The notes under the pieces were generated by a model. It did not search any database and was not told where the DNA came from. It saw only the letters and a list, made by a program, of their open reading frames with translations. A stretch of DNA of 63,652 bases, the filler included, from Basidiobolus ranarum (taxonomy: Eukaryota), in the NCBI GenBank assembly GCA_040143965.1. It is 23 parts of 23 records of this genome, joined end to end, with 100 filler letters (N's around TTAATTAATTAA, not from the genome) between each part and the next. Parts side by side here need not be neighbours in the genome. Positions count along the whole stretch, not along the records: positions 36,113 to 38,783 come from JASJQH010003084.1; 22 more parts are not named here. One strand, written 5' to 3'. Shown here piece after piece: positions 38,131-38,725 of the stretch. The first letter of the stretch is position 1. Each line of letters opens with the position of its first letter. Position numbers and translations under genes: made by a program.

Positions 38131-38725
38131 CTATACTATTAGTTCGATATGAAATTCGTTAGAGTGCTGCTATAGTATGTTACAGTGGATAATATCCTAG
38201 CGAATCCTCTAGGGAGAAATAAATTTTTCTCACCTCCTCCAGTATGAACTCAGCGTTACTGTTTGCATACTCAAAGGCTACAGGAGGAAAAACAAGTTGA
38301 CAGGCAAATTTCACGTCACGTAATCGAATGATCCTCATCTTTGAACCCGTTGCCAACATATACGTATCTAGATGAACATTCATTAGAATACTATAATGAG
38401 ATTGGCCAGAGAATTTGAGCGCCAATAACCGTTCATTATTTTCCAGAACAAATCGTCACACGAGCACTCTAGGACACACATGGCGGGCGTAGATATCTCA
38501 ATCCCACCATTAAAGCTGCCCAAAATTCTATCAAGTAGAGATCAGTTATCTTGGTTTCTTGGCTAAAGTTCTTGGTGAGAAGTTTACTTGAAAATATGCG
38601 GGTGAAAAAAAATCTCTTCTCTGTCATCCTCGTTTTTCCATAGCATACGGCAAATCATGTTGTCGTACAAAGGCTCAAAACCGCCATCGTCGAGGCTTTT
38701 GTAGGAGCTTACTTCAGCGGTATTT
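38131..38725 (-). CDS. Highly divergent histone H2B-fold protein (exons 38725-38588, 38527-38430, 38367-38180; possible extra intron 38233-38170 giving stop at 38131); 5' end cut
   Basis: Spliced product aligns without gaps to the H2B fold (IFKIL, ISTPAM, DDLFWKI, LA, IRLRDV..ACQLVFP, YANS). Confidence 0.75.

Follow-up and report, generated by a model that had tools for sequence, protein, structure and literature searches.

An extremely divergent, acidic histone-fold protein of apparent H2B descent in the fungus Basidiobolus ranarum

How far can a core histone diverge and still be recognised as one? Few eukaryotic proteins are as highly conserved as H2B, and a short, intron-split gene of Basidiobolus ranarum poses this question in concrete form. 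The gene lies within a stretch of 63,652 nucleotides (here called the window) from assembly GCA_040143965.1, in which contigs of this genome are joined end to end. Its product, P0001, is deposited as the 105-residue 'hypothetical protein K7432_016849 [Basidiobolus ranarum]', and the public record gives it neither a histone name nor a precomputed Pfam domain. An earlier note, made from the DNA alone, had described a hidden gene for a lineage-specific H2B variant, or for an H2A-binding histone mimic or chaperone, in an early-diverging fungus. The gene is not hidden, having already been annotated publicly, and the new part is its histone nature, which the annotation lacks; the fungal source and the descent from H2B stand, and what the protein does can be put forward with reserve only. 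P0001 is evidently a true homologue of H2B, descended from it. It is best described as an extreme H2B-derived histone-fold protein rather than a canonical H2B, since several functional features that define the latter were looked for and found altered or lost.

Relationship to H2B

In a phmmer comparison of P0001 with all PDB chain sequences, 188 distinct sequences matched at an expectation value (E) of at most 10, and the best 60, which were examined, are all H2B. The best match comprising a single fold (6m2m_D, E 7.5e-6) is gapless over residues 18-94, and the HMMER alignments to H2B extend without gaps over residues 18-94 or 18-102. An exhaustive HMMER search of 1.84 billion representatives (E ≤ 0.001) returned 12 proteins: the query, ten H2B-type proteins and P0003; 10 of the 11 non-self matches are thus H2B-like, and no larger conserved family carrying this domain emerged. 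P0003 (572 residues, E 1.6e-8, eight stretches, 21% identity) is of low complexity, its score is inflated by repetition, and it was set aside as a chance match. The tandem or fused H2B models P0002, P0004-P0006, P0009 and P0011, whose E-values are likewise inflated by repetition, were excluded from alignments A2 and A3. One of them, P0011 (1007 residues, from the Neomeris dumetosa transcriptome in EukProt), contains several separate H2B-like histone-fold domains in acidic low-complexity sequence. In a profile search with alignment A1, all 8000 scored candidates reached E ≤ 0.001, and the 120 best are of H2B type, many of them tandem-fused gene models; a fungal name is borne by none of these 120. 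The profile comparison proper, hhalign of P0001 against 17 H2B sequences with the query excluded, agrees with the assignment made in the earlier note (94.9% probability, E 4.6e-8).

Structure prediction was carried out with and without related sequences. The ESM Atlas single-sequence model of P0001 has a predicted local distance difference test score (pLDDT) of 0.76 and a predicted template-modelling score (pTM) of 0.64; the structural cluster closest to it, 'Histone H2B family protein', gives a template-modelling (TM) score of 0.82 over residues 5-105 (101 residues). AlphaFold2, when supplied with a 25-row alignment of H2B-type sequences (A2), produced a model with pLDDT 69.7, which is partly circular, the alignment being rich in H2B. 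Its helices (residues 19-29, 37-64, 72-82 and 85-104) would represent the histone fold (alpha1-L1-alpha2-L2-alpha3) followed by an H2B-type alpha-C helix. A histone fold is thus predicted by both models, alpha-C included. Foldseek returned at least 500 PDB matches, 184 of them at E ≤ 0.001; among the matches listed, all chains come from nucleosome or H2A-H2B-complex entries (E ~4e-5 to 2e-4, 20-26% identity). VIA-align, an aligner that does not depend on Foldseek, placed human TSH2B first, with Z 6.5 and a root-mean-square deviation of 6.7 over 87 aligned residues that include alpha-C.

Apart from the circularity just mentioned, several results weigh against an H2B descendant that is maintained for its fold. 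The Pfam Histone model (PF00125) matches P0001 below threshold, with 15.4 bits and E 0.022 at a cut-off of 26.4. From the single sequence, AlphaFold2 reached a pLDDT of 33.4, which is uninformative on the fold. In VIA-align, TAF12 (Z 6.3, 69 residues aligned), CENP-W (5.8), an archaeal histone (5.7) and NC2 (5.5) must be regarded as tied with H2B, because all Z values lie below 8 and within one unit of each other. Taken together with the CENP-W, CENP-S, CENP-X and NF-Y-type clusters that an Atlas feature search lists at 0.84-0.89, as leads only, these ties and the low Pfam score are what could be cited for a protein that is not H2B at all, owing its similarity to chance or belonging to another histone-fold family such as TAF12, NF-YB/NC2 or CENP-W. 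We regard this as extremely unlikely. The Pfam models of TAF12 (PF03847), of the NF-YB type (CBFD_NFYB_HMF, PF00808) and of CENP-W (PF15510) gave no match to P0001 at E ≤ 10, although HMMER filters drop most matches above ~0.1 and may have hidden very weak ones; the preference of the earlier note for H2B over such families is thereby upheld. Single exons searched against Pfam are too short and gave only chance matches (E ~0.05-0.1). Only H2B chains, moreover, align through the fourth helix, over 87 residues, where histone-fold chains from other families align over 66-72, and the PDB sequence matches, the hhalign result and the Atlas TM score all favour H2B. Structure alone would indicate a histone fold; P0001 is assigned to H2B on account of its matches in sequence, the fourth helix and the register of the C-terminus.

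Core, surface and possible role

The divergence of P0001 was measured against the consensus of 17 ordinary H2Bs in 85 columns, which correspond to residues 18-102. Both are identical in 20 of these columns (~24%) without a single insertion or deletion (indel), a number of identities that none of 100,000 shuffles reached; the gapless alignment with 20 identities drawn by hand in the earlier note is therefore sound. Sorted by the class of the H2B residue, the columns behave as follows.

Hydrophobic H2B columns, 37: 31 still hydrophobic in P0001
Basic H2B columns, 12: 4 still basic in P0001
Acidic H2B columns, 7: 3 still acidic in P0001
Other H2B columns, 29: 3 identical in P0001
H2B columns of any class conserved at 90% or more, 44: 12 identical and 32 changed in P0001

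The hydrophobic pattern is retained, as had been stated from the DNA alone: P0001 has a hydrophobic residue in 31 of the 37 hydrophobic columns and in only 14 of the remaining 48 (Fisher p 7.5e-7), and 31 retained columns were reached in 0 of 100,000 shuffles. The hydrophobic core of P0001 is kept and its surface is not. Retained residues comprise the L1 motif I-S-x-x-A-M, D49, F51, K66, R73-D74, L81 and P84, of which the motif, D49, F51, K66, R73, L81 and P84 are invariant or nearly so across 25 aligned rows.

Changes affect positions on which H2B function depends. The E, E and K columns of the consensus are occupied by V86, N94 and E101, as had been noted before; we take these columns to be E105, E113 and K120 in human numbering, that is, the glutamate pair of the acidic patch and the ubiquitylated lysine. 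A conserved Tyr is replaced by G64, a Phe by S46, and Arg residues by M60, M67 and Q80; the Tyr is presumably the one that docks H2B on H4. Directly before alpha-1, the basic region is replaced by the acidic segment KNEDDREE, again in agreement with the first description, and the lysine-rich N-terminal tail is lost in the annotated model. The isoelectric point (pI) of P0001 is 5.08, with 11 Lys and Arg against 15 Asp and Glu, and the fold carries a net charge of -2 as compared to +3 to +7 in nine other H2B-type rows. Of the 85 positions, P0001 has 20-23 in common with ordinary H2Bs and 24-27 with the divergent P0007, P0012 and P0008, which themselves share 33-59 with ordinary H2Bs; by this measure, it appears as an outlier even beside other divergent H2B-like proteins.

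We tentatively propose, with somewhat less than even confidence, that P0001 is a functional, H2B-derived partner protein that works away from the nucleosome or as part of very labile particles. An H2B descendant would have retained its histone fold under selection while its surface was rewritten. Every histone-fold protein requires a partner, and the predicted fold with its alpha-C helix would most likely support a head-to-tail 'handshake' dimer with an H2A-type protein, so that pairing with such a partner is probable as far as the models go. No H2A-specific domain was found in the ten long fused models that were scanned. Off the nucleosome, P0001 may escort or sequester its H2A-type partner, by analogy with the mammalian proteins H2B.L (subH2B) and H2B.N; alternatively, and by the same analogy, it may sit in very labile, specialised particles. 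A role as bulk nucleosomal H2B is disfavoured because the basic tail, 8 of the 12 basic positions, the H4-docking Tyr, the glutamate pair of the acidic patch and the ubiquitylated Lys are all lost, and the contribution of P0001 to DNA wrapping would be weak or absent.

The same residues bear on a different explanation, namely that P0001 is a true nucleosomal H2B variant, deployed at particular loci or life stages (e.g. spores or zygospores), where it would give open, unstable nucleosomes. Its H2B architecture is complete up to alpha-C, the C-terminus has near-canonical length with Y102 in register, and the L1 motif, K66, R73-D74 and P84 are in place; known specialised H2B variants also dispense with features of the acidic patch or the tail. 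The net negative charge, the loss of two thirds of the conserved basic columns and the exchange of Y for G at the H4-docking position nevertheless exceed, to our knowledge, what has been described for nucleosomal H2B variants, and a basic tail is absent from the annotated model as well as from the in-frame extension discussed below. We consider a nucleosomal variant unlikely.

A more far-reaching form of the preferred reading, an off-nucleosome partner protein, is that the fungus independently evolved an acidic, non-nucleosomal 'anti-histone' from H2B: the H2A-binding handshake surface would have been kept, whereas the acidic patch, the ubiquitylation site and the capacity to bind DNA and dock on H4 would have been shed, leaving a protein dedicated to partnering or buffering one of H2A type. 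That H2A-type protein may be as divergent as P0001 itself, with its gene head-to-head immediately past the contig end. The idea is speculative, and we rate it as rather improbable.

The gene, its maintenance and its 5' end

The gene has four exons on the minus strand and lies close to one end of its contig. Positions refer to the window.

36113-38783: contig of the H2B-like gene, 2,671 bases, one of 23 contigs of ~2.7 kb in order of descending length
38784-38883: contig joint (N44 + TTAATTAATTAA + N44), artificial, ends the contig of the gene
38588-38658, minus: exon 1, ATG at 38658-38656; residues 1-24, with the acidic KNEDDREE and the start of alpha-1
38528-38587, minus: intron 1, 60 nucleotides (nt), GTAAAC...GATAG; phase 2, in codon 24; CTGAT 18 nt before the acceptor
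38430-38527, minus: exon 2, residues 24-57, with the end of alpha-1, L1 with I-S-x-x-A-M and the first part of alpha-2
38368-38429, minus: intron 2, 62 nt, GTTATT...TCTAG; phase 1, in codon 57; CTAAT 19 nt before the acceptor
38234-38367, minus: exon 3, residues 57-101, with the remainder of alpha-2, L2, alpha-3 and alpha-C
38136-38233, minus: intron 3, 98 nt, GTGAGA...AATAG; phase 0, after codon 101; CTAAC 27 nt before the acceptor (CTRAY also at 7 nt)
38121-38135, minus: exon 4, five codons, Y-R-A-A and the stop codon TAG
38659-38754, minus: open in-frame extension of 32 codons without an in-frame ATG; possible coding sequence or 5' untranslated region
38655-38687, minus: 10-codon open reading frame (ORF) from an out-of-frame upstream ATG (38687), with a TGA that overlaps the annotated ATG (ATGA)

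Joined in order (38658-38588, 38527-38430, 38367-38234, 38135-38121), the exons encode P0001 with every residue identical. The first two introns had been placed exactly from the DNA, and the deposited model uses both; their removal yields a single frame, whereas the unspliced reading runs into stops or a frameshift, and exon 3 is the only exon that appears as a long ORF. Splicing of intron 3 brings Y102 opposite the conserved Tyr near the C-terminus of H2B, with three residues following. All three introns have GT-AG ends and a CTRAY branch-like motif. On the preferred reading, the four-exon locus is a real protein-coding gene of Basidiobolus ranarum. Since the window consists of joined contigs, features across joints are physically unlinked; 'ttaattaattaa' and the N-run found 5' of the gene (minus strand, 38784-38883) are part of the artificial joint.

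Is this gene maintained or decaying? Its 105 codons are free of stops, frameshifts and indels in spite of ~24% identity to H2B. For random codons of this composition, the chance of 105 without a stop is 6e-4, a value softened by the freedom of a gene predictor in placing introns. The guanine-cytosine (GC) content at codon positions 1, 2 and 3 is 0.43, 0.35 and 0.48, as compared to 0.36 in the introns and ~0.32 in intergenic DNA. We infer that the gene has probably been maintained by selection for the histone fold, because neutral decay to such divergence would have ruined both the frame and the hydrophobic pattern.

To the results given above as unfavourable, those on its isolation have to be added. 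P0001 forms a singleton cluster, and the search of the 1.84 billion representatives brought up no relative with more than 35% identity. Metagenome contigs gave 272 pattern matches, none of them confirmed, and neither an orthologue nor a 5' extension; viral contigs gave three pattern matches, none confirmed, and no sign of a viral origin. Word-index searches retrieved only P0001 itself, with exon 3 and 'longer' lengths (1 of 4 candidates) as well as with P0001 and 'near' lengths (1 of 1). An orphan gene can be a dying one. P0001 might accordingly be a relic, that is, a duplicated and long functional H2B gene which is now unexpressed or decaying and was caught by automatic gene prediction. Its singleton status in database and metagenome searches, which yielded neither an orthologue nor a paralogue, its location on a 2.7-kb contig of a fragmented assembly, the change of 32 of the 44 most conserved columns and the out-of-frame ATG ahead of the annotated start would all fit. 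A relic is difficult to reconcile, on the other hand, with the intact codons and the three introns with their splice and branch signals, nor would one expect the hydrophobic core to be preferentially conserved and the coding-type GC content at third positions to be kept, features that neutral decay to 24% identity should have erased. We therefore do not favour this explanation, the likelihood of which seems to us low. In a blastn comparison of the contig of the gene with the other 22 contigs and with itself, as a look at repeat or transposon context, no match was found.

The annotated start deserves particular attention. It has an A at -3. The ATG (38658) is preceded by 125 bases of contig, and sequence further 5' is cut off at 38783 by the limit of the assembly. 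The out-of-frame ATG, 29 nt 5' of the annotated start, together with the contig end renders the N-terminus uncertain and is a further point on the unfavourable side. The 10-codon ORF at 38687 could be an upstream ORF, maybe with termination-reinitiation, or the true start could lie further upstream. The product has at least 105 residues, and it may have a longer N-terminus or additional 5' exons. Fungal H2A and H2B genes are typically arranged head-to-head across a promoter of 200-300 nt (PMC13525598), and the missing upstream sequence is especially relevant because of this usual pairing.

The most extended version of a longer product would be a protein of which P0001 forms the C-terminal histone-fold domain, with 5' exons past the contig end: either H2B extended N-terminally by a long novel region or a non-histone protein of several domains. 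The open upstream frame without an in-frame ATG is compatible with it, as is the exon-like GC content of the region, 0.456-0.478 (0.456 over 38659-38783), compared to ~0.32 in downstream intergenic DNA. A candidate TAG acceptor at 38728-38726, with CTAAC 33 nt upstream, would suit another intron and matches the end coordinate 38725 of the earlier note; if the region is coding, the out-of-frame ATG would be harmless, and the contig end is near enough to conceal further exons. The open frame itself, however, is weak evidence because ~31 codons stay open by chance with p ~0.11, and the fold and the C-terminus match those of a stand-alone H2B. That the product is a large, conserved protein of several domains is unlikely, for the exhaustive search set no limit on length and gave nothing closer than ordinary H2Bs; the word search for longer proteins likewise returned P0001 alone. 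The 22-residue in-frame extension is also acidic, with one Lys or Arg against five Asp and Glu, and supplies no basic tail. In sum, a longer multi-exon protein of this kind appears quite improbable.

The same contig contains a second intron-split gene (36130-37027, minus strand), which follows the H2B-like gene downstream after ~1.1 kb and is truncated by the contig end; its similarity to WD40 repeats is weak (PF00400, E 0.0046, below cut-off). The neighbouring, unrelated contig (38884-41553) carries at 38884-41385 on the minus strand an uninterrupted 834-codon ORF of a Ty3/gypsy-type retrotransposon, cut by the contig end, with gag, Ty3 capsid, zinc knuckle, aspartyl protease and reverse transcriptase domains (RVT_1, E 6e-40).

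Comparison with known systems

An acidic, tail-less derivative with the fold of H2B would constitute a natural experiment on the parts of a histone that can be removed without loss of the fold. It would also join mammalian H2B.L and H2B.N as a second instance, of independent origin, in which a core histone has been recruited to tasks outside the nucleosome. The finding illustrates, moreover, how such genes escape notice: scoring below Pfam thresholds, they are labelled 'hypothetical proteins'. Striking as it is on paper, P0001 is an orphan on a 2.7-kb contig, and the weight of the finding is limited.

With canonical H2B, P0001 has in common gapless homology over the fold and alpha-C, the same helix layout and a similar C-terminal length. 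It differs in being identical at only 20 of 85 positions, in the absence of a lysine-rich tail, in scoring below the Pfam gathering threshold and in having three introns. In seven of eight H2B-type proteins compared, the pI lies between 9.3 and 10.8, far above that of P0001; the eighth, P0012, has a pI of 7.84.

TAF12, NF-YB/NC2-beta and CENP-W are small, often non-basic histone-fold proteins that form obligate heterodimers away from bulk nucleosomes. P0001 has similar structural scores to these proteins over the three-helix core, but none of them is found among the best 60 of the 188 PDB sequence matches.

Animal variants offer the nearest described parallels. In mammals, H2B.L (subH2B) is located in the sperm subacrosome, H2B.N has a highly divergent histone fold for which a non-nucleosomal role has been proposed, and the genes of H2B.N and H2B.K contain introns (PMC8857922). 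Like H2B.N and H2B.L, P0001 appears to be a lineage-restricted, fast-evolving H2B derivative in which H4-contact, L2 and modified residues are altered. H2B.N and H2B.L are, however, of independent animal origin and have orthologues and expression data, and alpha-C, which P0001 keeps, is missing in most H2B.N proteins.

According to 'Histone variants at a glance' (PMC8015243), H2B variants beyond those discussed there are mainly confined to spermatogenesis, and the sole mention of fungi in the passages considered concerns H1. In such passages of both reviews (PMC8015243, PMC8857922), the H2B variants described belong to the germlines of animals, to olfactory neurons and to plants; fungal ones are absent. 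Among the titles listed on fungal H2B variants, on histone variants of early-diverging fungi and on Basidiobolus histones, no divergent fungal H2B paralogue appeared. Fungal histone genes do contain introns, with 13 insertion sites for H2B among Pezizomycotina and Basidiomycota, and in the fungi covered by that study, H2B has fewer copies than any of the other three core histones (PMC3029354).

The nearest single-fold matches to P0001 are P0007, P0012/P0017 and P0008/P0016, which come from small ENA/NCBI contigs and show no specific kinship with it. P0012 and P0017, as well as P0007, are further H2B-like proteins that are tail-less or weakly basic. The closest counterpart in form is P0012, which also has 105 residues and an acidic, tail-less N-terminus; unlike P0001, it is near neutral, and it agrees with ordinary H2Bs at 45-46 of 85 positions. 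Non-basic H2B derivatives may thus be a wider, undescribed phenomenon.

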